Source: a phage
Sequence record: PZ445530.1
Length of the DNA stretch: 64,000 bases
Strand: one strand, 5' to 3'
The notes under the pieces are model-generated. The model saw only the letters and a program-made list of their open reading frames with translations, was not told where the DNA came from and ran no database searches. The position numbers were made by a program, and so were the translations under genes. Shown piece by piece: positions 17,513 to 50,623 of this stretch (positions within the stretch are counted from its first letter, which is position 1; each line of letters begins with the position of its first letter).

Positions 17513-17560
17513 TTATTTTTAGATGGCCTTGACTTCAGGGCCATCAATAAAGTAAACTAA
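17513..17560 (+). repeat. repeated intergenic element containing hairpin GATGGCC-TTGACTTCA-GGGCCATC and promoter-like TTGACT/TAAACT (copy 1)
   Basis: near-identical copies at ~18134-18180 and ~21853-21898; variant at ~18472-18520. Confidence 0.55.
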
Positions 17561-18133: not shown

Positions 18134-18180
18134 ATTATTTTTAGATGGCCTTGACTCCAGGGCCATCAATAAAGTAAACT
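18134..18180 (+). repeat. repeated hairpin/promoter-like element (copy 2)
   Basis: ATTATTTTTAGATGGCCTTGACTCCAGGGCCATCAATAAAGTAAACT. Confidence 0.55.
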
Positions 18181-21852: not shown

Positions 21853-21898
21853 TTTATTTTTAGATGGCCTTGACTTCAGGGCCATCGATAAAGTAAAT
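21853..21898 (+). repeat. repeated hairpin/promoter-like element (copy 3)
   Basis: TTTATTTTTAGATGGCCTTGACTTCAGGGCCATCGATAAAGTAAAT. Confidence 0.55.
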
Positions 21899-36534: not shown

Positions 36535-36557
36535 TAAAAGCCCTCCGAAGAGGGCTT
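36535..36557 (-). terminator. hairpin terminator between ClpP-like and MTase genes
   Basis: AAAGCCCTC-TTCG-GAGGGCTTT followed by TTTTAT on minus strand. Confidence 0.45.
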
Positions 36558-36569
36558 TAGAATTAATGT

Positions 36570-37988: not shown

Positions 37989-38089
37989 ACTGTCCTTCTC
38001 TTTGTTTTGTCCGATAATAATATCTAAAGCTTGCCTATTTGTCAACAACTGTTTTAGATATTTAAGGGTGGAATAACCACCCTTCTATA

Positions 38090-38878
38090 TTACTCGGAAA
38101 CAGGGGTCCAAATATGATTTGCACGATCCTCAATAAGATTGAGTGCGATCTGACGACCCAACCCGGAACGAACGACATCGTCTGGACTATCAAAGCTGAT
38201 CATTCCAACCTCAGGATCTGGATGACGAGTAAAGAAATCCGTCACCCATGCAAGTCCAGATTTACCAGGGATGTCACGTTGGCTATTATCCCCCATAATT
38301 ACAAGGGTGGCCTGATCAGAGATCCTTGTGATAATTGACAACATTTCTTCAGGGTTAGTTTGCTGTGCCTCGTCAATCAGGACAAAGCATCGCTCATCGA
38401 AACTACGACCACGAATGCTTTCAACTTCACAAATCTCGATACGGCTGTTCTGACCGTCTCCCAGCATTGCGGCAAAAGCACCTTTGCCAACACGGCGACA
38501 AATCGTGTCCATCATGCTTCGAAGATAGGGCCACAGTTTCTGCATTGCATTTCCAGGTTTAAATCCTGAAGTCTTCCCTGTCTGAACGTAAGGGCGTGCA
38601 ACAATGATCTTATCAATCTCGTTCTTACGCAGAAGATCACCTGCATATGCAGATGCCATGAATGTCTTACCGGATCCAAACACACCGTTTACAATAATAA
38701 TCTTACGTGACCCTAGATAATCAAGGTACTTTTGCTGCTTTTTATTCATTGGTCGGAGAGCTGGAGCGGTGTGCTCTCTTTCGTCAGCAAATTTCTCAGC
38801 AGCCTTACGCAGGCGATCAGATTTGCGAGCCTCTCTAGCTTCATCACGCATGCGTTTTGTTTCTTTAGCTCGACCCAT
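38090..38878 (-). CDS. phoH: PhoH-like ATPase
   Basis: Walker A GVFGSGKTF, Walker B FVLIDEAQ; PhoH-like overall pattern. Confidence 0.7.
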   Translation of the reverse strand: MGRAKETKRMRDEAREARKSDRLRKAAEKFADEREHTAPALRPMNKKQQKYLDYLGSRKIIIVNGVFGSGKTFMASAYAGDLLRKNEIDKIIVARPYVQTGKTSGFKPGNAMQKLWPYLRSMMDTICRRVGKGAFAAMLGDGQNSRIEICEVESIRGRSFDERCFVLIDEAQQTNPEEMLSIITRISDQATLVIMGDNSQRDIPGKSGLAWVTDFFTRHPDPEVGMISFDSPDDVVRSGLGRQIALNLIEDRANHIWTPVSE

Positions 38879-38916
38879 GTTGGGACTCCTTTCAGATTGA
38901 GATGTGCCAAGTACTT

Positions 38917-39267
38917 TTACTGCAACAGTTTTTCAATAGCCGCTTCCATGCTGCTTGCAACAGCCTGAACTCGGATATTCATCTCTTCTTGGTGGATCAG
39001 CTCCTTAAGCTCTTTAATGGTAAATTCTTTAGAGAAACCTTCCACCATAATCTTGTGCAAGGCTTCTTGCGTGTCTACTTGCAAGAACTTTTCCAGTTTG
39101 TTGGCAGAGGCTTCTAAATCAGCCCGAATACGAGGGTCATCTGTGCGATTCAGCATTAGGCGTAAGCCATCAAGATTAGTAGAAATAGCATCTGCATGTT
39201 GAGTAACTAACCGTGGCAAAATGAGATCTACAACCTTATTAGCCAAATCGATACGTTCTTGTGTCAC
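38917..39267 (-). CDS. hypothetical protein
   Basis: 116-aa ORF. Confidence 0.5.
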   Translation of the reverse strand: MTQERIDLANKVVDLILPRLVTQHADAISTNLDGLRLMLNRTDDPRIRADLEASANKLEKFLQVDTQEALHKIMVEGFSKEFTIKELKELIHQEEMNIRVQAVASSMEAAIEKLLQ

Positions 39268-39377
39268 TGTTGCACCCCCTCTTCATCTTCATGATGTTTC
39301 TTTTCACGCTTGTGTTTTTTCTTAAGCTCAAGCGCAATCTCTTTCTTGTACGCCTTCTTCAAGGCTTTTTTAGCCAT
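39264..39377 (-). CDS. small lysine-rich protein (37 aa)
   Basis: ATG after GGAGG SD; MAKKALKKAYKKEIALELKKKHKREKK...; stop overlaps next start. Confidence 0.3.
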   Translation of the reverse strand: MAKKALKKAYKKEIALELKKKHKREKKHHEDEEGVQQ

Positions 39378-39408
39378 TTGGCACCTCCTCTGCTTTCATT
39401 TTACGATA

Positions 39409-39438
39409 ATTATACCTATCTACACCAAGCTTTGTCAA
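39409..39438 (-). promoter_or_regulatory. sigma70 consensus promoter (minus strand)
   Basis: TTGACA-18nt-TATAAT read on minus strand. Confidence 0.5.
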
Positions 39439-39441
39439 CAA

Positions 39442-39915
39442 CTAGTCTACCTGAACCCAACCGCCTGCTACTTTTTTAAACATTCTTTGGTTATCGCTGC
39501 CTCGGAACGGTTTCTTGGTTGGTAAATCTTTTACATACTTACCGTCAATGATGATATCAGCCAGTTTAAGAACATCACTAGAGATATGGTCAAATGTGAA
39601 CCCAGTATATACAAGAATAGTTTTCTTGTCACCAAATTTTTCCTTAATTTTCTCCATCAGGCTAATAATACCTGGCTCATTATAGTATGCTAAGGGTTCT
39701 CCACCCAGCAGAGAGATACCGCACACAGACGGGTTATCCAGATCTGACAAGATTTTTTGCAAATCTTCTTCAGTGAACTCCCTCCCCTTATCTTTTGACC
39801 AAAATGCCTGATTAAAGCAACCAGGGCAAGCGTGTGGGCACCCAGATACCCACAAGGCAGTTCTAATACCTGGCCCTTCTGTGTAAGATACTTCTGTGTA
39901 TCCGACAATGTTCAT
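39442..39915 (-). CDS. nrdG: anaerobic ribonucleotide reductase activating protein (radical SAM)
   Basis: CPHACPGC (CxxxCxxC) cluster near N-terminus; adjacent to nrdD. Confidence 0.75.
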   Translation of the reverse strand: MNIVGYTEVSYTEGPGIRTALWVSGCPHACPGCFNQAFWSKDKGREFTEEDLQKILSDLDNPSVCGISLLGGEPLAYYNEPGIISLMEKIKEKFGDKKTILVYTGFTFDHISSDVLKLADIIIDGKYVKDLPTKKPFRGSDNQRMFKKVAGGWVQVD

Positions 39916-39944
39916 AGATACTCCGTATCACATTTAGGGCAATG

Positions 39945-40028
39945 TCAAATAAAATCGTCTAGTGCCTTGCACCAACGAAGATTGCAACGACAACCACACT
40001 TGCAAATTTTATAAATACCTGTAGACAT
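39945..40028 (-). CDS. cysteine-rich micro-protein (27 aa) between nrdD and nrdG
   Basis: MSTGIYKICKCGCRCNLRWCKALDDFI; GGAGG SD 6 nt upstream of ATG. Confidence 0.35.
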   Translation of the reverse strand: MSTGIYKICKCGCRCNLRWCKALDDFI

Positions 40029-40091
40029 ACTGTACCTCCTAGCCCACTGTGTGTCAATAATATGCCACATCCTTGTGGCTTTTGTCAAGTA

Positions 40092-42215
40092 TCAGCAACT
40101 ACAACTTCCATAGTGCTTAACTCGCTCGATAACTTCCGCTTGCTTACCTTTATTGTAAGGACGGGAGTTAGGACTGGAAAGGTATCCAGACACTCTTCGG
40201 ATCACTGAGATATATTGTTCATCGTGGCATCCGCACGCAGGGCAGCAGAACCCTTTAGCTGTTGCACTGAACTCACCAGAGAAACCACACTTGAGACATT
40301 TATCTACAGGTTGGTTAATACCAAAATACATAATGTGTTTATACCCGAAGTCAACAAGAGCCTCTAAAGCATCCAGGTTGTTTTTCAGGTTAGGTGTCTC
40401 TACGTATCCGATGTTGCCACCAGAGGAGATCATAGCAAAACCTTCCTCATACTCCCACTTATCAAAAGGAGAGCTATTTATCCATACTGGCTGATGGAAA
40501 CTGTTGGTGAGATATTCATGCTCGTGCTTCAACACTTCCGGATATTCACGATCCAGACAGGTTGCAGCTTTATAGCATAGACTCTCAGAAGGAGTGCCGT
40601 ACAAGCTAAACGCTAGTCTACTTTCCTTCTTGTATCGCTCACAAGCATCTCTCATGTGCTGAAGGATTCCAAGAGCTAAAGCCTTGTCACCCTCTCTACC
40701 CAAAATCTGACAGGTTTCATACACACCAATATACCCAATACTGATGGAAGCGTACCCGTCATAGAAGAGTTTATCAATACTCTCTTCAGGATCCAGGCGA
40801 GCAAGAGCTCCTTCACACCACATGATGGGGTTCTGCCCTGCCTTTGTTCCTTTTAGACGGTTAACCCTTACAAGGTGAGCCTCGTATGCAAGATCCAAGT
40901 ATTCGTCAAGAACTGCAAAGAAATCAACACCTTCCGTCTTAGCTTTTGCCGCAATCATTGGCAGGTTAAGGCTAACAACGCCTAAGTTAAATCTGCCAAG
41001 GTATTTCTCCTCGCCTGTTTCCAAGTCATTGTATTTGCTAAGAAAACTCCTGCAACCCATGCTAGTTACTTTGCCATCTGTCGAGCCTGTCACTTTTCTA
41101 TTTAGTGGTACAGATACGAAGTCAGGATAGATACGTTCTGCACAGCATTCCAGAGCTAATCGTTTCAAATCATAGTTAGGATCCCCAGGGTTCATGTTGA
41201 CACCCTCTTCCAGGAAGAACAGCACTTTAGGGAACACAGGTGTGATACGTTCTTCACCAAGACCCATTTTGTGGACTTTCAAGTAGTTTTTGGTAATCAT
41301 TCTACCAAAGACCGAGGTATCCAGCCCTAAACTTAATGTTATGAATGGAGTTTGCCCGTTGACAGAGGTTAACGTATTGATTTGATAGAGCAAAGTCTGC
41401 ATGCTGTCAAATACGTCTTTATCTGTCATTTGCATTGCAACAGTCTCAGCATCTGGCAACCAATGTTCCTGGCAAAATTTAAGGTTCTTCTCATAAGTTG
41501 CTTCAGCATATTGTGCCAGATAATGATCAATATGGCTCATAGTCTGACCACCATATTGAGCACTAGCTACCGCACTAGAGATTTGGCTAAGGATTGTTGT
41601 TGCAACCCCTATTGACTTCGGCTTACTGACATGGGCGTTACCAATGTTGAATCCGTTTTCCAACATATCTGGATAATTTACCAAACAACAGTTTGTTAAC
41701 GGACTGATCAAGTAGTCAAGATCATGCACATGGATGAATCCTTTATTGTGCTCTTCGGAGACACGGTCTGGCAGGATCTGTGTTGATGCAAGGTGTTTGC
41801 TAAGAATACCTGCAAGCAGGTCGCGATGAGTGTGTACATGATTAGTAGGCTTATTTGCGTTTTCTTTTGTAAATTCATCACAAGTTCGATCCAAGAAGCC
41901 ACTAATATCTGCAAGCAGTTTTCCACCTGCCTCTCTGTTATTATCTCTTGTCTGTCTATACTGGATGTATTCTCTGGCTGCACATTTTAAACCCATATCC
42001 ATAAGAGCATCTTCAACAAGGATATGGATATTTTTTACAGAGATCGTGCACTGGTCGGTTGGTAGATTGTTAGCAACAACTTCATTAACTGCACAAGCTA
42101 TCCGGTAAGCTTCTTCTTCAGTATGTCCAGACTCAAGTAAGGCGGACTCTGCCGCCTTGATCACCTTAATTCCGTTATAAAACTCTTCTCTACCGTCCCG
42201 TTTTACAACTTTCAC
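40092..42215 (-). CDS. nrdD: anaerobic ribonucleoside-triphosphate reductase (class III)
   Basis: C-terminal glycyl-radical motif RVSGYLS and Zn site CLKCG...CPACGC; 707 aa. Confidence 0.85.
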   Translation of the reverse strand: MKVVKRDGREEFYNGIKVIKAAESALLESGHTEEEAYRIACAVNEVVANNLPTDQCTISVKNIHILVEDALMDMGLKCAAREYIQYRQTRDNNREAGGKLLADISGFLDRTCDEFTKENANKPTNHVHTHRDLLAGILSKHLASTQILPDRVSEEHNKGFIHVHDLDYLISPLTNCCLVNYPDMLENGFNIGNAHVSKPKSIGVATTILSQISSAVASAQYGGQTMSHIDHYLAQYAEATYEKNLKFCQEHWLPDAETVAMQMTDKDVFDSMQTLLYQINTLTSVNGQTPFITLSLGLDTSVFGRMITKNYLKVHKMGLGEERITPVFPKVLFFLEEGVNMNPGDPNYDLKRLALECCAERIYPDFVSVPLNRKVTGSTDGKVTSMGCRSFLSKYNDLETGEEKYLGRFNLGVVSLNLPMIAAKAKTEGVDFFAVLDEYLDLAYEAHLVRVNRLKGTKAGQNPIMWCEGALARLDPEESIDKLFYDGYASISIGYIGVYETCQILGREGDKALALGILQHMRDACERYKKESRLAFSLYGTPSESLCYKAATCLDREYPEVLKHEHEYLTNSFHQPVWINSSPFDKWEYEEGFAMISSGGNIGYVETPNLKNNLDALEALVDFGYKHIMYFGINQPVDKCLKCGFSGEFSATAKGFCCPACGCHDEQYISVIRRVSGYLSSPNSRPYNKGKQAEVIERVKHYGSCSC

Positions 42216-42490
42216 TTTTTCTCTCCAAAACCATTCTTAACAAAAGAGATGAAATCGTCTGCACCGCCTATATGGACACTGTCAAGATCGCTTTCTAAGA
42301 AGATCTGCGGCAACGTTCTGGGGACGATTGGACTACACTTCTCAATAAGCTCTTCTTTTGTGTAGCCCTCGCCAAGTGTCTTATATACAAAAGGCAGACC
42401 TTTGCTGATTGCAAATTCTTTTGCTCTGACACAATGTGGGCAGTTATCCTTACCGTAAATGATGATGAAAAAAGATTTTTCGCAGCTCAT
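42212..42490 (-). CDS. glutaredoxin/NrdH-like redoxin
   Basis: CPHC active-site motif near N-terminus; located between nrdB and nrdD. Confidence 0.65.
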   Translation of the reverse strand: MSCEKSFFIIIYGKDNCPHCVRAKEFAISKGLPFVYKTLGEGYTKEELIEKCSPIVPRTLPQIFLESDLDSVHIGGADDFISFVKNGFGEKK

Positions 42491-42493
42491 ATA

Positions 42494-43582
42494 TTAAAAC
42501 TCCCAAATTTCTTCTTCAGCGTCGTTAACAGTTGTGTTGACGCGGTAGTCAGTGTTCGACATTTCTTGGTTCGCCGTCTGTTGCAATGAAGGTTTCATCC
42601 ACACCTGCATAAACGGTAGCGGGTCCTTTGTTGGCGGCACAAAGTCTTTGTCGATGTCGTAGTAATCATAAATCGGTGAGCAGTTATAGTCAACCCACTC
42701 TTTAAGCAACGGTGAGTTAAGACCTATAATCGCTCTTCCTTCGCTGAAAATATAGTCACTCCAGCCGTACTCTTTGGTTCGTACTTCATCAAGAATCTCT
42801 TTTAACTCCCCCTTTATCTCAAGGAAGCTTTTCTCCCATGCGGGATCATTAAGCAAGATATCAATGATGGCAAAATCACCTTTCGAATGTAGCATTTCGT
42901 CAAGCATGATTTTTTGAACAAGCTGCGCCACCTGAACAAAGATACCCTGTTCAGCTACTGCGAAAGTGCATGCAAAACTTGCAATAAACTCAATACTTTC
43001 CAGAGCTAAAAGTGCAAAAAGCGCTCTAAGAATGCATTTCCGCACAACATCTTCTTCAACACTAGAAGGATCCAGTCGGTATTTTGCACCAATAACCTCA
43101 AGCTCTTGCATGTATTTGACAATAACTCCGGATCTGCTCAGAACGTTTTGGTTTTCCTGAATCTCTTCTATAATCTCACGGGCATTAGGGAGGCATTGTC
43201 TAACAATCTCTGAGTAAGTTAGTGCGTGAAGAACTTCAATCTCTGACTGTTTCATCAATAGAGTGAAAAGCTCACTATTAGTGATGAATGGTGAAAAGAG
43301 GCAGATGATCGATCTTGCCGCAACGCTATCAGCCTCCCATTGCCACATCAAGGTCTGCACCATCACGTCATAAGTTGACTTTGAGCATGTTACAAAATCT
43401 GAAATAGATTGCGACAAATCCACTTCATCCTCTGCCCAATCTTGCTCTTTTTGTTTTTTGTATAGTTCAAACAGTTGTGGATATTTTTTGTTGATAGAGT
43501 CGTACATACCCATTTGCTGTCCCAGAAACAGCGGATAGTCACCAGTTTTATGAGCGGTGTTCTCAGCATTAAATACAGCCAT
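42494..43582 (-). CDS. nrdB: ribonucleotide reductase class I small (beta) subunit
   Basis: size and position next to nrdA; helical ferritin-like pattern; ATG at 43582 with GAGGT SD (track ORF extends to 43642). Confidence 0.7.
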   Translation of the reverse strand: MAVFNAENTAHKTGDYPLFLGQQMGMYDSINKKYPQLFELYKKQKEQDWAEDEVDLSQSISDFVTCSKSTYDVMVQTLMWQWEADSVAARSIICLFSPFITNSELFTLLMKQSEIEVLHALTYSEIVRQCLPNAREIIEEIQENQNVLSRSGVIVKYMQELEVIGAKYRLDPSSVEEDVVRKCILRALFALLALESIEFIASFACTFAVAEQGIFVQVAQLVQKIMLDEMLHSKGDFAIIDILLNDPAWEKSFLEIKGELKEILDEVRTKEYGWSDYIFSEGRAIIGLNSPLLKEWVDYNCSPIYDYYDIDKDFVPPTKDPLPFMQVWMKPSLQQTANQEMSNTDYRVNTTVNDAEEEIWEF

Positions 43583-43620
43583 TATTCTACCTCTAAAATG
43601 GGGCCGAAGCCCCTTTAAAA

Positions 43621-45936
43621 TTATAGTGCACAGCTTTCGCAATACGGATCTTCAACTGAACTATCTGCAATCAAAGGATAGTTCTTTCTGGTTTCATCTT
43701 CAGCCTGTTTCTTGGCATGAAGTTCCTCTGCCAAGGAGTCACCAGCACCAACCCTAGAGTTTAAATAATACCATGTCTTCATCCCGAATTTAGTGGCACG
43801 GATAAGGTACCCTAACTGCTCCTTCATTGAAATTTTACCATCTTTCAACTTGGTGTAGTCTATGTATAAATCCGCGCTGATTGCCTGACCTGTGAATTTT
43901 TGAATCACGGCATACATATCGATCATGTCGTTAGTATCAACGTCCCAAGCCGAGGTGTAATACTCTTTCAACTCATCATAGTCAGGAACGATAAACAGCA
44001 CCTGCCCTTGTGGCGACTTTTTAAAGATAATGTGCTCACGGACAGGATAAACCCCGTTAGTGGTGTTTGTTGCCAGCGAAGAGCTTTCATTAGGCATATA
44101 TGCTTCAAGAACGCTATTACGTAGCCCACCATTCTCAATGATTTCTTTACGTAACCCTTCCCAATCCTGTTTAAGAGAAGGATCTTTCACCACGCTATCG
44201 ACCTCTTTGTTATAGGTGTCGATTGGTAACCAACCTTCTGGATATTTTGTTTTATGCATCCACTCGCAGACACCACGCTCTTTTGCCAACCGTAAACTTG
44301 CCTTATGCAAGCTGTAGCTGTGAAGTTCTGCAAGATCGTGAACGAGCTGTTTACTTTCAGGAGACCCGTAAGTAACCTTGTGGCTGGCAATAAAATGTGC
44401 AACATTGGTAAGGCCAACCCCGATGGATCTGCGTTTTTTAACTGTGCTTTCCATATTTTCATACGGATATGTCATGATTTCCATAACATTGTCAATCATA
44501 AGCACCGTGTAGTATGCAACATCCTCATACTCCTCTGGAGTAACCCTTCCAGCTACAAGAGATGACAGGAAGCACAATGCAACCTCTCCATCATCAGCAT
44601 CGTACTTGAAGATATTACGCATATCTGAATAGCCTTTTGTCGGGAGGGCTATTTCTGCACACAGGTTACTTGAATAGATCACATCTTTAAAAGGTGTATG
44701 TCTATTCATCTCATCTGTCCAGTATACATACAGCCTTCCCACCTCAGTACGCTGCGTGATCAGTTCAACAGCAAGATCTCTGGCTCGGATCCATGTTTTA
44801 GGAATACTGTCATCTTTAGCAATACGCTCAACCTCTGCATCGAACTCCTCCATAGACATGGTGAAGATACCCTCATGCAGTTGAGGAGCGTGCTTATAAG
44901 AAACAAGCATCCAATCTAAATTCTTAGCCACACGGTTGATAAACGACCTATTAATACCGATGGAGTAGTCCATGGTGTTGATTCTTTTTGAAGCAACAGT
45001 CATAGGGTTTCTCAAACGGATTAGCTCATCAATCTGCGGGTCCAGTGCAAGGAATGATACTGTTGCAGAACCGCCACGTGATTGTTGTCTGTTCTCCTTA
45101 ACACCAGCATCAATACCTCGATAATATGGAATCTTACCCATATGTTTAATAGTGTTACCACGAACACCATCGCCTGCAGATCTTGAGGATAAGTAGTAGC
45201 CGATACCTGCTTGGTTAACCGTCATTGTGTACGCAACTTCACGTGCCACACCAATAGATTTTGCTGTATCGTCAGCTTTTATTACACAACAAGATGCATA
45301 CCCTGTCTTACCTGTGCGCAGCCCGTTTAAGTACGGTGTCGGGGCATTGATCTTTAAGTCGGACAGATAAGTGTATAATTTTACAACATCGTTGATACGA
45401 CGTTCTTTCGGCATATTCTTCATGACAGCCATTGCTATCCCCATAAACATCATCTGGGGAGATTCAAACAAGGTGTCTTTAAGAGTATCCTTGATCCCGT
45501 ATTTGTCGCGAAACTGTTTAAGGACTGCATAGCCATAACCGAGATCTTTACTGTGGTCAATAACAGCGTCTAAAGTGTTTAGCTCGGTAAAGCTATAACC
45601 CATATCCTCCCAATAACCTTTCTCAACCATGTCATTGTAAAATGATGGTAAGGAAGGGATCTTTGTAAACCCTCCAAAAGCCTCTTTATAGATCTGACCA
45701 ATAAGAACACGACCAGCCATACGGGAATGTGCTTCGTCTTTACGGCTAACACAAGAGTCTATAATAGCTTGGTTAACTTCTTTGGTTGTACATCCATCAT
45801 ACAACCGCTTGTAGGCATCCAGTGCAATATGTGACCAATTGCCGTTACCATCGTCACCGAAAATAGCTGCCTTATTTAAACGTTCTGGATCGAATGCTAC
45901 TTCACATCCGTTGCTTTTAATTACCTTGGTGATCAA
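43621..45936 (-). CDS. nrdA: ribonucleotide reductase class I large (alpha) subunit
   Basis: 771 aa; C-terminal redox cysteines ...CESCAL; gene order nrdA-nrdB. Confidence 0.8.
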   Translation of the reverse strand: MITKVIKSNGCEVAFDPERLNKAAIFGDDGNGNWSHIALDAYKRLYDGCTTKEVNQAIIDSCVSRKDEAHSRMAGRVLIGQIYKEAFGGFTKIPSLPSFYNDMVEKGYWEDMGYSFTELNTLDAVIDHSKDLGYGYAVLKQFRDKYGIKDTLKDTLFESPQMMFMGIAMAVMKNMPKERRINDVVKLYTYLSDLKINAPTPYLNGLRTGKTGYASCCVIKADDTAKSIGVAREVAYTMTVNQAGIGYYLSSRSAGDGVRGNTIKHMGKIPYYRGIDAGVKENRQQSRGGSATVSFLALDPQIDELIRLRNPMTVASKRINTMDYSIGINRSFINRVAKNLDWMLVSYKHAPQLHEGIFTMSMEEFDAEVERIAKDDSIPKTWIRARDLAVELITQRTEVGRLYVYWTDEMNRHTPFKDVIYSSNLCAEIALPTKGYSDMRNIFKYDADDGEVALCFLSSLVAGRVTPEEYEDVAYYTVLMIDNVMEIMTYPYENMESTVKKRRSIGVGLTNVAHFIASHKVTYGSPESKQLVHDLAELHSYSLHKASLRLAKERGVCEWMHKTKYPEGWLPIDTYNKEVDSVVKDPSLKQDWEGLRKEIIENGGLRNSVLEAYMPNESSSLATNTTNGVYPVREHIIFKKSPQGQVLFIVPDYDELKEYYTSAWDVDTNDMIDMYAVIQKFTGQAISADLYIDYTKLKDGKISMKEQLGYLIRATKFGMKTWYYLNSRVGAGDSLAEELHAKKQAEDETRKNYPLIADSSVEDPYCESCAL

Positions 45937-46241
45937 TTTGCTTCCTCCACTTCACTAACGTATTTATCAAGGCAGGTATCAGTATCTTGCTGGATAAAAG
46001 TATCCTCTTCTACAGAGATATTTATAATTTTACCTGTATACTCGTCATAATAGACATCATCATACATTTTAATATCGTTTGTCAGGCCATTGAACCAAAG
46101 CCAACCAACATACTCTGCCCGACTTGCAAAACCAAGATCCTTCCACTTGGAGTTATGACTCATCTTCACCACCTTAGCTTTCAATACCGAATAATTTTTC
46201 CAGGCGATGCAGATCTTCAAAATTGAAAGGTTCATCAACAA
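45933..46241 (-). CDS. hypothetical protein
   Basis: 102-aa ORF. Confidence 0.45.
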   Translation of the reverse strand: MLMNLSILKICIAWKNYSVLKAKVVKMSHNSKWKDLGFASRAEYVGWLWFNGLTNDIKMYDDVYYDEYTGKIINISVEEDTFIQQDTDTCLDKYVSEVEEAN

Positions 46242-46674
46242 TATGAATATCTTCAGCCTTTTCAGATTGTTTTGTATACTTTCTTACATTAACACGATCC
46301 TCTACAGGGATATCATACGGGAGATCTTGAACAAGCATTGCCTCACCAGGTGCTTTATCTACATCTAAAATATCTACACCGTTATACATTTGTGGGTATC
46401 TAAAGTCTGCACGCATGACACCAGCAAATACATCTGCCTTTCGATAATGTGTTGGCTTATTTTTGCATCGAACGTTTTTTCCACGAAGAACATCAATACT
46501 TTTTAAATCAAACCCTACGGCAAAGAGTGCAGCTCGGAGACCGTTTCGTGTGCGAACGTTAAACCCGGGGACGGTAGATAGAAAATCTAAAGTAACTGAA
46601 ATAAATGTCTTTTTAGGAATCATAACATTACTCATATCTGTCTCCATTTCTGGCTCACCAACAAAGTGAGCCAT
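46174..46674 (-). CDS. hypothetical protein
   Basis: 166-aa ORF. Confidence 0.5.
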   Translation of the reverse strand: MAHFVGEPEMETDMSNVMIPKKTFISVTLDFLSTVPGFNVRTRNGLRAALFAVGFDLKSIDVLRGKNVRCKNKPTHYRKADVFAGVMRADFRYPQMYNGVDILDVDKAPGEAMLVQDLPYDIPVEDRVNVRKYTKQSEKAEDIHIVDEPFNFEDLHRLEKLFGIES

Positions 46675-46733
46675 TATTATAGATTATCTAATACTATTAG
46701 TCAACACAAAAGTTACCTATCGCTGTGATAGGA

Positions 46734-47717
46734 TTAACCTTTCACGAAGTGGTTATTAAGCAGTTGTCTGTGCTGAACCCACCCACAAAAGTTGGCAGAC
46801 CAGAATTTACCATCACGGTCTTGATGGGTTACACCTTCCTGCCAAGTACTGATGTCTTGTGTGATTTCACATGAAGACAGGTAGTAGTTTAAACGTTCCA
46901 TTGCATTATCGTGATCCATAGGTGTTGCCTGGTGCTCGTAAGGGCTTGCATGAATACGATCCCCACCAATCAATTTTTTAGCAACACTATCTGCCTTTTC
47001 AAACGTGCTGTCAATATTTCGATAAGATACTTGTGCACAGCAACTAGCACTGATAGACAGAGCTTCTTTAGTATCGAGAATGCAAAGCTTTCCTTCTGTG
47101 TCACGTACAGCGTAGTTAAACTCTCCGTCCAAATAAACGTGCTCTACATATGGGGTGTGCCATTGACCCGGTTTAAGGATTTCAGGAGTGCTATTCTCAA
47201 GAGCCTCCCACATACAATTAGCTAACATCTGAATCGTAGGATCCGCATCGTGCCAGCAACGGAGGTGGAAAAAATTATTCCACTCGGTGCTTGTTACAAC
47301 TGTTTTCATGCGCTGGAACGGCTCCACTAAGCGGTTACATACTTGCTTATGGTAACCAGCAAGGGCGAACTTCTCTGCATGCCAAGCGGCGTTTTTTGCA
47401 GCTTCTTTCCAAAACTCTTCAGGAGTTAGCTCCATGTCAGTGTACTCTACACGGATCTTTTGATCGTGTTCCCCACCATCTTCCATTCCTCGCTTATTTA
47501 CACCGAAGCGAACTGGCATTGCCGGATTCTCCACAATCTGTTGCAGCATCTTGCCGACAGGTACTGCACGGGAAGACATGGCGTTTCTGCTGAACACTCG
47601 GTGCGTCATAAGCTCTGAGTGAATAATTCGAGGATACTCTAGTTCAAAAGTGGTGATACGCTTACCTTTCTCGGAAATGCTGTCAGCAATAATCTTTGCA
47701 GTGCACAGTTTTAGCAT
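46734..47717 (-). CDS. thyX: flavin-dependent thymidylate synthase (ThyX-like)
   Basis: ThyX-type motif ...HRVFSRNAMSSRAV (RHR-x7-S pattern, first residue T) and NRLVEPF. Confidence 0.6.
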   Translation of the reverse strand: MLKLCTAKIIADSISEKGKRITTFELEYPRIIHSELMTHRVFSRNAMSSRAVPVGKMLQQIVENPAMPVRFGVNKRGMEDGGEHDQKIRVEYTDMELTPEEFWKEAAKNAAWHAEKFALAGYHKQVCNRLVEPFQRMKTVVTSTEWNNFFHLRCWHDADPTIQMLANCMWEALENSTPEILKPGQWHTPYVEHVYLDGEFNYAVRDTEGKLCILDTKEALSISASCCAQVSYRNIDSTFEKADSVAKKLIGGDRIHASPYEHQATPMDHDNAMERLNYYLSSCEITQDISTWQEGVTHQDRDGKFWSANFCGWVQHRQLLNNHFVKG

Positions 47718-47917
47718 TATTTAGCTCTCCTTGTTTTAATTTTGGAAATTTCGTCTGGGTTTATGTTGGCCTTAAATGCAAGGTATCTGTTGAACATGTC
47801 AGAGCACATATCTTGGGTGATCCTAGAGGCATACACTAGCTTACCTCCTAGATCATACACCTCTAGCCAGTCACCATATCTGACTACAGGATCGCCACCT
47901 TTAGAACATCTGCCCAT
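47717..47917 (-). CDS. hypothetical protein
   Basis: 66-aa ORF. Confidence 0.4.
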   Translation of the reverse strand: MGRCSKGGDPVVRYGDWLEVYDLGGKLVYASRITQDMCSDMFNRYLAFKANINPDEISKIKTRRAK

Positions 47918-47918
47918 T

Positions 47919-48512
47919 TCAAATACCTTCTAAAAATTTTCCTATTTTATACCAGCTATTAGCGGTATAGTCAACACTGACCTTTAACTCCTCGAATTGC
48001 TCATAAGGCGTATCTTTTAGGATTTTAATAACTTCAGGTCGTGAAGCGAATTGGTTCAGGTATTCATGCCTGTCGTCAATTATAACATCTACAGCCACAT
48101 TCCCTTTGAAATGTGTGGCGTAGAAGCCGTGGCCCTGGGTGTGGTCGTCCAGATCCATAAAATCACTGGTCCAACGCTTTAAGAACCTTGATTTAGATGC
48201 AAGGTGACCTTTCTTGCATACCGAGATAAATGCAAGCTTGTGACCACGAGCCACCAAATCTTTCATAACCTCAATAGCCCCCTCTTCAGGCTTAAGGAAG
48301 TCGTAGAGGAACGGATCACTCCAGAAATCAAAAGGTCCTATGATGTTTTCTTTGGGACGATCAGGCCAATACTTTGACAGATCGTAATACATTAGCCCAT
48401 TAGAAGGTTTAGCTACTGTCTTACTGGCTGGACCATACAAACGCTCCAACCACTCCCACCATGCTGTTCCTGAATCTACCAGTGTCAGATCTACATCAAT
48501 TCCGATTAACAT
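47919..48512 (-). CDS. HAD-superfamily phosphatase (putative 5'-nucleotidase)
   Basis: HAD motif I IGIDVDLTLVDS (DxD). Confidence 0.5.
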   Translation of the reverse strand: MLIGIDVDLTLVDSGTAWWEWLERLYGPASKTVAKPSNGLMYYDLSKYWPDRPKENIIGPFDFWSDPFLYDFLKPEEGAIEVMKDLVARGHKLAFISVCKKGHLASKSRFLKRWTSDFMDLDDHTQGHGFYATHFKGNVAVDVIIDDRHEYLNQFASRPEVIKILKDTPYEQFEELKVSVDYTANSWYKIGKFLEGI

Positions 48513-49120
48513 TCTTCTTGGGCCTCTTTAACATCAATATACTTGCACACAATCTCCGATGCACACTCCCAAGGTGCACCTTCAGGGTTTACAACATCAA
48601 ACTCAACCCCTTTTATTCCGTTCTTTTCCAGACTTAGATAGGTTCTGGAATCATTTCCCCAGTCATATCCTACACGGTGAATACGGAACAACAACAGATC
48701 TCCACCTGTGCTGTATGCGTACTCGCTAAGGCATGCCAGCTCCTCTTTGAATCCCCCATCGGAGTAAACAATAACCCCTTTACCTTCAGGGAAATCTTTC
48801 TTCAAAGATGCGACTGCGGCTTTACCGAAAGCATCTTCACCAAAGATAGGTTTAATCAGATTTTCACTACAATGGATCATCCATTCTCGCGGAGAAACAT
48901 GCTTGCCGTCTATCATTAAGAAAGGGCAAGGCTCTTCTTTGTAGTGGCGGTCATAAAGTGCATTCCAGAGTTGAGGAGTTACACCAGCTGCCTTAATTGC
49001 CACACTGAAGAGCATTTCCTTAACCTCACGGTGGTGTGAGTTAGGAATAGCTTCCAACAAGAGATCTGCAATGTGATCCTTACCACTGCTGGGTGGGGCG
49101 TTAAGAACAATAATATCCAT
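48506..49120 (-). CDS. P-loop nucleotide kinase-like protein (possible dNMP kinase)
   Basis: N-terminal NAPPSSGKD P-loop variant of the SGKD type. Confidence 0.4.
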   Translation of the reverse strand: MDIIVLNAPPSSGKDHIADLLLEAIPNSHHREVKEMLFSVAIKAAGVTPQLWNALYDRHYKEEPCPFLMIDGKHVSPREWMIHCSENLIKPIFGEDAFGKAAVASLKKDFPEGKGVIVYSDGGFKEELACLSEYAYSTGGDLLLFRIHRVGYDWGNDSRTYLSLEKNGIKGVEFDVVNPEGAPWECASEIVCKYIDVKEAQEEC

Positions 49121-49797: not shown

Positions 49798-50608
49798 ACC
49801 TGGTCTCCAAAATGTATTGTAGTTCTTTCTTACCTATACTCTTCATTCCAGCAGTCTTACCTGCTTCTTCTTGAAAAGAAGAATAGCATTCAGCAAACAC
49901 TCTGTCAACACCGTTAACTAAAGATTTTATGAAATATGTTGATTCTTCAGATTTTGGGTCATCATCCCCCAATACTTTTCCAGCATTATACCCAACACGT
50001 CTTACACAGAAGTCGTAGTCATCTGGTGTGCTAAAAGAAAATAACTTATTCTCTCCAATCTCTACAGGATCCCTATTGCACGCCTTTTTCTCCCAAATTT
50101 GGAAAACACATGGCACGTCATAAGGTTTGCCATTAAGTAAAAACGAATTCTTAGGGCACCTTTCGCTGTAGACAAGGTGCATCGACATGTCCAGTTTGTT
50201 TGCAAAAAATATTTTTTCAAATGTCCGTGGCAAGATGAAGGCTATAGCCCCTCCAAGCTCTAGCAATGATGCACAATGGTTAAAGAATTTGCAAGCTAAG
50301 GATGAATTCTTGCCAAATGGTGGGTTACCTATGAAGACATCTGCCTTGGGATGCACCTCCAAGAAGTTTGCCTGAATGCACGGTGTTGGTCCTTCAAATT
50401 CAGGATCTGGTACTAAATCGTACGACAGTATCTCTGAAAATAGTTTTGAAAAAGAACCCCTTCCAGCAGAAGGCTCAACGTATGCACAATTCCCATACTT
50501 ATCTTTTACTTTACCAACAAGATATTCTGCATACTCAGGGTTTGTGTAGTATTTGTCGTTGGACTCTTTCTTGCTCAAAGTGCCTCCAAAAGGAAAAGGG
50601 AGGCGCAA
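49760..50608 (-). CDS. DNA N6-adenine methyltransferase-like protein
   Basis: motif I-like VEPSAGRGSF and motif IV FIGNPPFGK; non-ATG start. Confidence 0.6.
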   Translation of the reverse strand: MRLPFPFGGTLSKKESNDKYYTNPEYAEYLVGKVKDKYGNCAYVEPSAGRGSFSKLFSEILSYDLVPDPEFEGPTPCIQANFLEVHPKADVFIGNPPFGKNSSLACKFFNHCASLLELGGAIAFILPRTFEKIFFANKLDMSMHLVYSERCPKNSFLLNGKPYDVPCVFQIWEKKACNRDPVEIGENKLFSFSTPDDYDFCVRRVGYNAGKVLGDDDPKSEESTYFIKSLVNGVDRVFAECYSSFQEEAGKTAGMKSIGKKELQYILETRYDQKHRLDQRTY

Positions 50609-50623
50609 GCCTCCCTATAATTG

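Follow-up and report, generated by a model that had tools for sequence, protein, structure and literature searches.

What does a small hairpin do between the two genes of a phage-borne class Ia ribonucleotide reductase? The question is raised by sequence record PZ445530.1, a stretch of 64,000 nucleotides of phage DNA (hereafter the window), in which a 14-nt hairpin with a UUCG loop separates nrdA from nrdB. A first-pass annotation of this DNA had proposed that the hairpin could set the alpha:beta stoichiometry of the enzyme. Comparison with other phages indicates that a hairpin after nrdA is a maintained feature of one clade, while its exact sequence in the window is in generic use at gene boundaries in viral genomes. 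We suggest that it is a generic boundary element, acting as a leaky terminator and/or a barrier to mRNA decay, by which nrdA would be favoured over all downstream genes, and we give this reading about an even chance of being right.

The source phage is an rV5-like Escherichia coli Vequintavirus. Positions 39264-46000 are 99.6% identical over their full length to Escherichia phage JeffSchatz (Vequintavirus, rV5-like). Over 100 further rV5-like genomes match this region at 95% identity or more, and the same reductase genes are annotated in all of them.

The hairpin at the nrdA-nrdB junction

On the coding strand the junction reads TAA-UUUUAAA-GGGGC-UUCG-GCCCC-AUUUUA-GAGG-UAGAAUA-AUG (Table 1). 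The hairpin, first noticed at about 43598-43618, was located exactly at 43613..43600 between nrdA and nrdB (GGGGCTTCGGCCCC in its DNA form), and the nrdB Shine-Dalgarno (SD) sequence that the first-pass annotation had placed after it is indeed present as GAGG at 43593..43590. The hairpin begins 7 nt past the nrdA stop codon (TAA, 43623..43621) and ends 6 nt before the SD. With a C(UUCG)G tetraloop on a Watson-Crick stem and an intergenic position in the sense of the mRNA, between the nrdA stop and the nrdB SD, it has the structure and the placement of the intercistronic hairpins of phages. The C(UUCG)G loop is exclusive to the gene strand, the opposite strand giving a CGAA loop.

The hairpin has a minimum free energy (MFE) of -11.1 kcal/mol, and the centroid computed for a 56-nt context consists of the hairpin alone, leaving the nrdB SD and AUG unpaired. 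In a 141-nt context the MFE structure lengthens the stem by weak A-U and G-U pairing, which takes in part of the SD (z = -0.8). Sequestration of the SD by such an extended stem was considered and rejected, the pairing being absent from the 56-nt centroid and not conserved in relatives. An RNase III processing site of the T7 type was likewise rejected, because such sites need about 20 bp or more of double-stranded RNA and the stem has only 5 bp. A permissive search of positions 38000-48000 on both strands with the Rfam 15 covariance models gave no match at E<=1.

Within the window the statistics for the hairpin are only moderate. CUUCGG hairpins with 5 or more base pairs in the stem number three, where 0.45 would be expected, and at least two were present in 6% of the shuffled windows; a 22-nt shuffle of the hairpin itself gave z = -2.2. 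As the in-window enrichment is modest, the case for function rests on the comparison with other phages.

Conservation after nrdA

In nine related lineages the 14-mer is invariant between differing flanks. Vequintavirinae relatives from IMG/VR, with NrdB 69-79% identical, keep the 14 nt unchanged while both flanks differ, and the same 14-mer is found at the junction in Phapecoctavirus (NrdA 54%, NrdB 49% identical) and in the GC-rich Variovorax phage V45v66 (NrdA 38%, NrdB 36% identical). This invariance is strong evidence against chance.

Other relatives carry different hairpins 3-19 nt past the nrdA stop, with at least six stem/loop sequences. Across the relatives the loops at the nrdA end are UUCG, UUAG, GAAA, UUU, UUAAGU and GUAAAA, and the alternative hairpins include AAAGGGC-UUCG-GCCCUUU, the same stem with a UUAG loop, GGAGGGGC-GAAA-GCCCUUCC, GGGUGGGG-UUU-CCCCACCC, GGGUCGG-UUAAGU-CCGACCC and GAGGGUC-GUAAAA-GACCCUC. 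In four of the compared sequences (L010, L011, L017 and L020) a hairpin follows nrdA, yet the next gene is not nrdB. It should be noted that the hairpins of different lineages vary in length and cannot be aligned, so that the evidence they give is positional and not column by column. Since the position is kept across the NrdA clade with different sequences, we take the hairpin to be functional rather than incidental, and on this comparative evidence a hairpin after nrdA is a maintained, clade-specific feature, to which AV126 (below) is the single exception.

When the IMG/VR sample was widened, a hairpin at least as stable as -8 kcal/mol was found at nine of the ten distinct junctions where NrdA was at least 44% identical, against 8/61 junctions with more distant NrdA. 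For comparison, about 25-30% of the 196 gene ends of JeffSchatz carry a hairpin. A universal feature of phage nrdAB operons was therefore rejected, as only those 8/61 distant junctions have one. Within the distant group (L175-L232, NrdA about 35% identical) 16 of the 61 junctions have a sigma-70-like TTGACA-N15-19-TATAnT sequence between nrdA and nrdB, and no hairpin. The nrdA-nrdB junction appears from these comparisons to be a recurrent regulatory point, which different phages fill differently.

Generic occurrence of the 14-mer

That the 14-mer stays unchanged even where NrdA identity falls to 38% pointed to an nrd-specific regulatory motif. This was rejected, because the exact 14-mer is present in at least 120 unrelated IMG/VR viral contigs, with one nrd locus among the matches listed, and in five copies across the genome of the Variovorax phage V45v66. 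JeffSchatz has one copy, which along with four others makes up its five strong UUCG hairpins, all of which lie between genes and read in the same direction as these. The recurrence at many unrelated junctions that marks the phage hairpin class is thus seen for the 14-mer.

The following counts refer to the matches listed. Among 121 distinct viral contexts an SD and a start codon lie within 45 nt downstream in 85 when read in the sense direction, against 12/121 antisense, and at least five T within the 8 nt past the stem are seen in 40% of the contexts against 16% on the other strand. Of 116 contexts, 108 have the end of an open reading frame (ORF) of 60 codons or more shortly before the stem, and in these 108 the stop-to-stem distance has a median of 7 nt (interquartile range 5-12). 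Across the class, the median from the end of the stem to the SD is 12 nt (7-19). The spacings in the window, 7 nt from stop to stem and 6 nt from stem to SD, are typical of the class. A palindrome acting at the DNA level was rejected in view of the strict sense-strand orientation of the UUCG loops. From its occurrences, the identity of the 14-mer across distant phages is more readily explained if a favoured mini-hairpin has been used again and again than if the 14-mer were a signal specific to nrd.

Terminator predictions and read-through

The hairpin is already known as a predicted terminator, and it belongs to a long-known class of phage hairpins. Among the 20 rho-independent terminators predicted with ARNold/MFOLD in the rV5 genome paper (Kropinski et al. 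2013, Virol J 10:76, Table S4), t109 is given as GGGGCTTCGGCCCCATTTT with -14.2 kcal/mol; rV5 shares its genus with the source phage, and t109 agrees with the hairpin of the window both in sequence and in location, following gene 109 (nrdA) and preceding nrdB. The ARNold terminator annotated between nrdA and nrdB of Escherichia phage Schickermooser (NC_048196, Phapecoctavirus) is the identical 14-mer. Neither differs in substance from the hairpin in the window, both being computational predictions, and neither source discusses conservation, leakiness or a role in subunit balance.

The stem-loop, with five G-C pairs and a 4-nt loop, has the form asked of an intrinsic terminator, namely a G+C-rich stem of about 5 bp or more and a short loop. 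For the U-tract, at least 5-6 U within the 8 nt directly after the stem are typical; the tail AUUUUAGA has 4 U in 8, which fails our in-house rule and passes ARNold in rV5 and Schickermooser. A run of 4-7 U is kept in most relatives, the range over all of them being 0-7 U.

A promoter scan found strong promoters at two sites only, the operon head and past nrdG (Table 1). None was found between the hairpin and nrdB, where the 18 nt from stem to ATG hold the SD. As nrdB has no promoter of its own and there is no room for one in these 18 nt, nrdB must, on this layout, be transcribed only through the hairpin, and the hairpin must be leaky. Any polarity here would affect nrdB, the glutaredoxin gene (grx), nrdD and nrdG together.

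Proposed role

We infer partial termination, stabilisation of RNA by the hairpin and the direction of the effect on expression from the observed structure, strand, position, conservation and generic occurrence of the hairpin along with the lack of a separate nrdB promoter. Transcription would begin at the sigma-70 promoter at 46704..46676. A minority of the host RNA polymerases would terminate at the hairpin and its short U-run, mainly when no ribosome occupies the nrdA stop codon 7 nt upstream, and the remaining polymerases would read through into nrdB, grx, nrdD and nrdG. Transcripts ending at the hairpin might arise by termination, by 3'-to-5' trimming or by an RNase E cut in the AU-rich flank; the very stable stem-loop would cap them, and the nrdA part would thereby outlive the distal part. 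The net outcome would be a level of nrdA mRNA equal to or above that of all downstream genes.

The role is most likely twofold, a weak translation-sensitive terminator and a 3' cap against exonucleases, because the U-tract is marginal, read-through is needed and ribosomes repress terminators close to a stop codon. A terminator 8-9 bp from the stop codon is almost fully repressed, since the ribosome blocks folding of the hairpin, and reaches full strength, an efficiency of about 0.9, beyond 30 bp (PMC4824070). The UUCG hairpin has been described as an autonomous nucleation element that reduces the number of alternative folds (PMC4371310). Phage intergenic regions are rich in CUUCGG hairpins, and a hairpin of this kind on the 5' side stabilises T4 gene 32 mRNA, according to a passage in PMC8948821 citing Tuerk et al. 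1988. Our literature search on nrdAB intergenic regions or stoichiometry gave nothing relevant.

The first-pass proposal of a device that sets the alpha:beta ratio stands in part. A leaky punctuation element is plausible, as the hairpin is real, in the sense of the mRNA, evolutionarily maintained, called as a terminator by ARNold in rV5 and Schickermooser, and leaky by layout. On the other hand, a device specific for alpha:beta is not supported: the 14-mer is generic, the next gene is not nrdB in the four relatives mentioned above, the U-tract is marginal and the stem is only 7 nt from the stop codon.

Several points weigh against a leaky terminator or decay barrier. Our in-house terminator scan did not call the hairpin site, because just four of the eight bases past the stem are T, and the U-tract (AUUUUA) is poor. 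The hairpin is kept with the U-tract absent in L009, L010/L156 and L157-160; since the U-run is lost and the hairpin kept in several relatives, the structure itself, rather than termination, may be the selected feature. The stem, with only 5 bp, may be too short to block PNPase or RNase II, and the nrdA hairpin is among the weaker of the approximately 45-50 gene-end hairpins of the genome. In AV126 (L146) two ORFs are inserted between nrdA and the hairpin, which still adjoins nrdB, a layout that would fit a role on the 5' side equally well. A literature search for RNA-seq of Vequintavirus found none, one match having used the T5-like phage Bas33.

The two ORFs inserted in AV126 encode hypothetical proteins of 83 and 129 amino acids (L146, 836-1546); they are absent from the related Schickermooser and are possibly mobile.

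Alternative readings

The alternative that survives best, although we hold it to be unlikely, is a protector on the 5' side. RNase E would cut in the UUUUAAA spacer, and the nrdB-grx-nrdD-nrdG RNA would start with a stem-loop that shields it from 5'-end-dependent decay; the distal genes would be stabilised, not attenuated, an outcome that we likewise find hard to favour. RNase E prefers AU-rich single-stranded flanks beside a stem-loop, which counts for this alternative. So does AV126, where the hairpin lies directly upstream of the nrdB SD despite the two inserted ORFs and nrdA is left without a hairpin, and so does the placing of the generic 14-mer a median of 12 nt upstream of an SD. The T4 gene 32 hairpin, stabilising from the 5' side according to the passage in PMC8948821, is a further argument for it. 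In the four relatives where another gene follows nrdA, however, the hairpin stays at the 3' end of nrdA, and nrdB has no hairpin and overlaps an inserted ORF.

We speculate, at a low probability, that the hairpin represents a class of ribosome-gated terminators in phage operons, so that successful translation of nrdA would become a condition for expressing nrdB and the anaerobic genes. The stem, at a median of 7 nt past the stop, lies within the footprint of the terminating ribosome. If gating of this kind were true, the hairpin would be silent during coupled translation; stopping of the polymerase and capping of the RNA would be confined to transcripts that are uncoupled or untranslated.

Somewhat less probable again is a translational insulator with little or no effect at the RNA level. 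Folding instantly and autonomously, the hairpin would keep the nrdB SD and AUG from pairing with the nrdA coding sequence. Termination on nrdA would be separated from initiation on nrdB, and synthesis of beta would be set by its own SD alone, which we also consider improbable. The junction centroid, consisting of the hairpin alone with SD and AUG unpaired, agrees with this, as do the stereotyped layout (stop, 7 nt, stem, about 12 nt, SD) and the autonomous nucleation described for UUCG hairpins (PMC4371310). An insulator would leave unexplained why most lineages, the GC-rich Variovorax phage among them, have a U-run behind the stem; further, the 141-nt MFE structure extends into part of the SD through its weak A-U and G-U pairs, and most neighbouring genes in the operon are tightly coupled without any hairpin.

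A full terminator that ends the nrdA unit, with nrdB onwards transcribed from an unrecognised promoter, for instance a middle- or late-type phage promoter, is highly improbable. The ARNold call speaks for it, and the T4-late-like motif class reported in the rV5 paper (Kropinski et al. 2013) points to non-sigma-70 promoters in this phage group. Against this, the 18 nt from the stem to the nrdB ATG, holding the SD, leave no room for a promoter, the U-tract is marginal, and 7 nt from the stop codon is a distance at which the ribosome represses a terminator (PMC4824070).

That the hairpin has no function, having arisen as a palindrome by chance or survived as an inert remnant that travels with the nrdAB cassette, would agree with the weak in-window statistics (the 22-nt shuffle and the 6% of window shuffles with at least two CUUCGG hairpins) and with some hairpin at about one quarter of the gene ends in the phage, but is very unlikely given the 14 nt invariant between diverged flanks where NrdA is merely 38-84% identical, the non-homologous hairpins at the same position in other lineages and the strict sense-strand orientation bias.

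Comparison with known systems

As a leaky terminator, the hairpin would resemble the attenuating terminators found within bacterial operons, for example the rplL-rpoB attenuator and the internal terminator of rpsU-dnaG-rpoD. These, too, consist of a hairpin and a U-run inside an operon, with read-through needed and distal expression lowered relative to proximal. They differ in having measured efficiencies and longer U-tracts, whereas the phage element has AUUUUA, is predicted only, and has its stem within the ribosome footprint of the stop codon.

As a decay barrier, it would find parallels in the repetitive extragenic palindromes (REP) and bacterial interspersed mosaic elements (BIME) of malEFG, reportedly described as a barrier by Newbury et al. 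in 1987, and in the intercistronic hairpin of the Rhodobacter puf operon, attributed to Belasco and Klug; both are said to set expression ratios within operons. The likeness lies in an intercistronic stem-loop able to protect upstream mRNA from 3' exonucleases. REPs are imperfect palindromes of about 35 nt, often clustered and bound by host proteins, whereas the phage element is a single perfect hairpin of 14 nt.

The host itself offers a parallel at the equivalent position. The nrdA-nrdB spacer of E. coli MG1655 (L154, 2347151-2347383) has 233 nt of REP-like palindromes with GCCGGATGCGGCG...CGCCTTATCCGGCCTAC repeats and a fold z of -7.4; their identity as REPs was judged by eye from the consensus, and they are unannotated in the record. 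The same spacer also holds the tiny antisense gene yoaM. If the phage hairpin were ribosome-gated, then the hairpins of the clade, the internal promoters of marine-type phages and the REPs of E. coli would be three solutions for uncoupling alpha from beta in class Ia reductase operons.

With the intercistronic C(UUCG)G hairpins of T4 and other phages the element shares the tetraloop on a short G-C stem and the intergenic position in the sense of the mRNA. Tuerk et al., in a 1988 paper (PNAS 85:1364), are said to have studied the T4 hairpins by reverse-transcriptase stops and thermodynamics. The roles reported for such hairpins in the passages that treat them are RNA stability and the marking of boundaries (PMC8948821, PMC4371310).

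Other hairpins of the window

A different hairpin, the 24-nt GATGGCCTTGACTYCAGGGCCATC, is present in three copies at 17522-17545, 18144-18167 and 21863-21886 on the plus strand, where none is expected by chance. Each copy follows a small early gene and has TTGACT, similar to a -35 box, in or beside its loop. The copies are reminiscent of the promoter-stem-loop cassettes of T4-type phages.

Two further predicted terminators of rV5 have counterparts on the minus strand of the window, both of them sense-strand tetraloop hairpins of the same gene block. Terminator t122 corresponds to 36537-36558, AAAGCCCUC-UUCG-GAGGGCUUU, between a ClpP-like protease and a methyltransferase, and t099 to 50597-50616, a sense-strand tetraloop hairpin AGGGAGGC-UUGC-GCCUCCCU followed by UUUCCUUUU. 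JeffSchatz is densely punctuated in this respect, with a hairpin of -9.5 kcal/mol or stronger within 22 nt at about 1/4 of its approximately 196 gene ends, far outnumbering the 20 terminators predicted for rV5.

Gene content of the dNTP-synthesis block

The genes for deoxynucleoside triphosphate (dNTP) synthesis were called with Pfam and PHROGs, and all are on the minus strand. NrdA, NrdB, NrdD, NrdG and the glutaredoxin score above the Pfam gathering thresholds and make up a class Ia plus class III ribonucleotide reductase module; nrdA has the same annotation in JeffSchatz. The gene order read in the first pass (nrdA, nrdB, glutaredoxin, nrdD, micro-ORF, nrdG) was confirmed by both databases, and the ThyX, haloacid dehalogenase (HAD) nucleotidase and kinase that had been noticed nearby all lie upstream of nrdA.

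Table 1. Features of the nrdA-nrdB junction and of the surrounding dNTP-synthesis block (positions in the window)
Feature	Position	Strand	Basis
Hairpin 5'-GGGGC UUCG GCCCC-3', 5 G-C pairs, C(UUCG)G tetraloop	43600..43613	-	sequence and fold
Spacer UUUUAAA, 7 nt, nrdA stop to stem	43614..43620	-	sequence
Tail AUUUUA after stem, short interrupted U-tract	43594..43599	-	sequence
nrdB SD GAGG, 7 nt 5' of ATG (43582..43580)	43590..43593	-	sequence
Sigma-70 consensus promoter TTGACT-17-TATAAT, operon head (orf166, orf76, nrdA onwards), equal to rV5 P107	46676..46704	-	
Next consensus promoter TTGACA-18-TATAAT, downstream of nrdG, equal to rV5 P118	39409..39438	-	
nrdA, class Ia ribonucleotide reductase alpha subunit, 771 aa	43621..45936	-	Pfam Ribonuc_red_lgC E=1.4e-100, Ribonuc_red_lgN
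nrdB, class Ia ribonucleotide reductase beta subunit, 362 aa	42494..43582	-	Pfam Ribonuc_red_sm E=6.2e-30
Glutaredoxin (grx), 92 aa	42212..42490	-	Pfam Glutaredoxin E=3.3e-8
nrdD, class III anaerobic reductase, 707 aa	40092..42215	-	Pfam NRDD E=1.7e-159, Gly_radical, ATP-cone aa 1-91
Cys-rich micro-ORF, phrog_20137	39945..40028	-	phrog_20137 E=8.8e-31
nrdG, radical-SAM activase of NrdD, 157 aa	39442..39915	-	Pfam Fer4_12 E=9.6e-43, Radical_SAM
ThyX, flavin-dependent thymidylate synthase	46734..47717	-	Pfam Thy1 E=1.7e-9
NT5C-type (HAD superfamily) 5'-deoxynucleotidase	47919..48512	-	Pfam NT5C E=4.4e-6
Deoxynucleoside monophosphate kinase	48506..49120	-	phrog_139 E=3.7e-44; no Pfam match

The nrdD gene starts with GTG at 42213-42215 on the minus strand, overlapping the glutaredoxin stop codon (GTGA) and preceded by a GGAG SD. 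In the JeffSchatz record NrdD has 636 amino acids from a later start, which leaves a 210-nt gap and most of the ATP-cone outside the gene. EmilHeitz, nomo, slur16, phiWec191 and others, 97-98% identical to the window, have nrdD annotated in two pieces with an insertion of an HNH/homing endonuclease; unlike in these phages, nrdD is intact in the window.

The micro-ORF family phrog_20137 is conserved, Cys-rich and 38 amino acids long, the JeffSchatz sequence being MSTGIYKICKCGCRCNLRWCKALDDFIWHCPKCDTEYL. In the window codon 28 is changed from TGG to TGA and the product is shortened to 27 amino acids, while the frame continues to 39912. The shortened form lacks the CPKC motif at the C-terminus and no longer overlaps nrdG by 4 nt.

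Implications

Rv5-like phages carry this dNTP-synthesis module as a rule, and by itself the hairpin matters little. What the present study adds is that a hairpin at the end of nrdA is, by comparison of relatives, maintained throughout the clade, that it must by its layout be leaky, and that the exact 14-mer is a widespread and stereotyped boundary unit of phage operons. This unit consists of a stop codon, about 7 nt, the hairpin, about 12 nt and an SD, with termination, RNA stability and ribosome gating as its candidate activities, and the activity that it has would bear on how such mini-hairpins are annotated in phage genomes.

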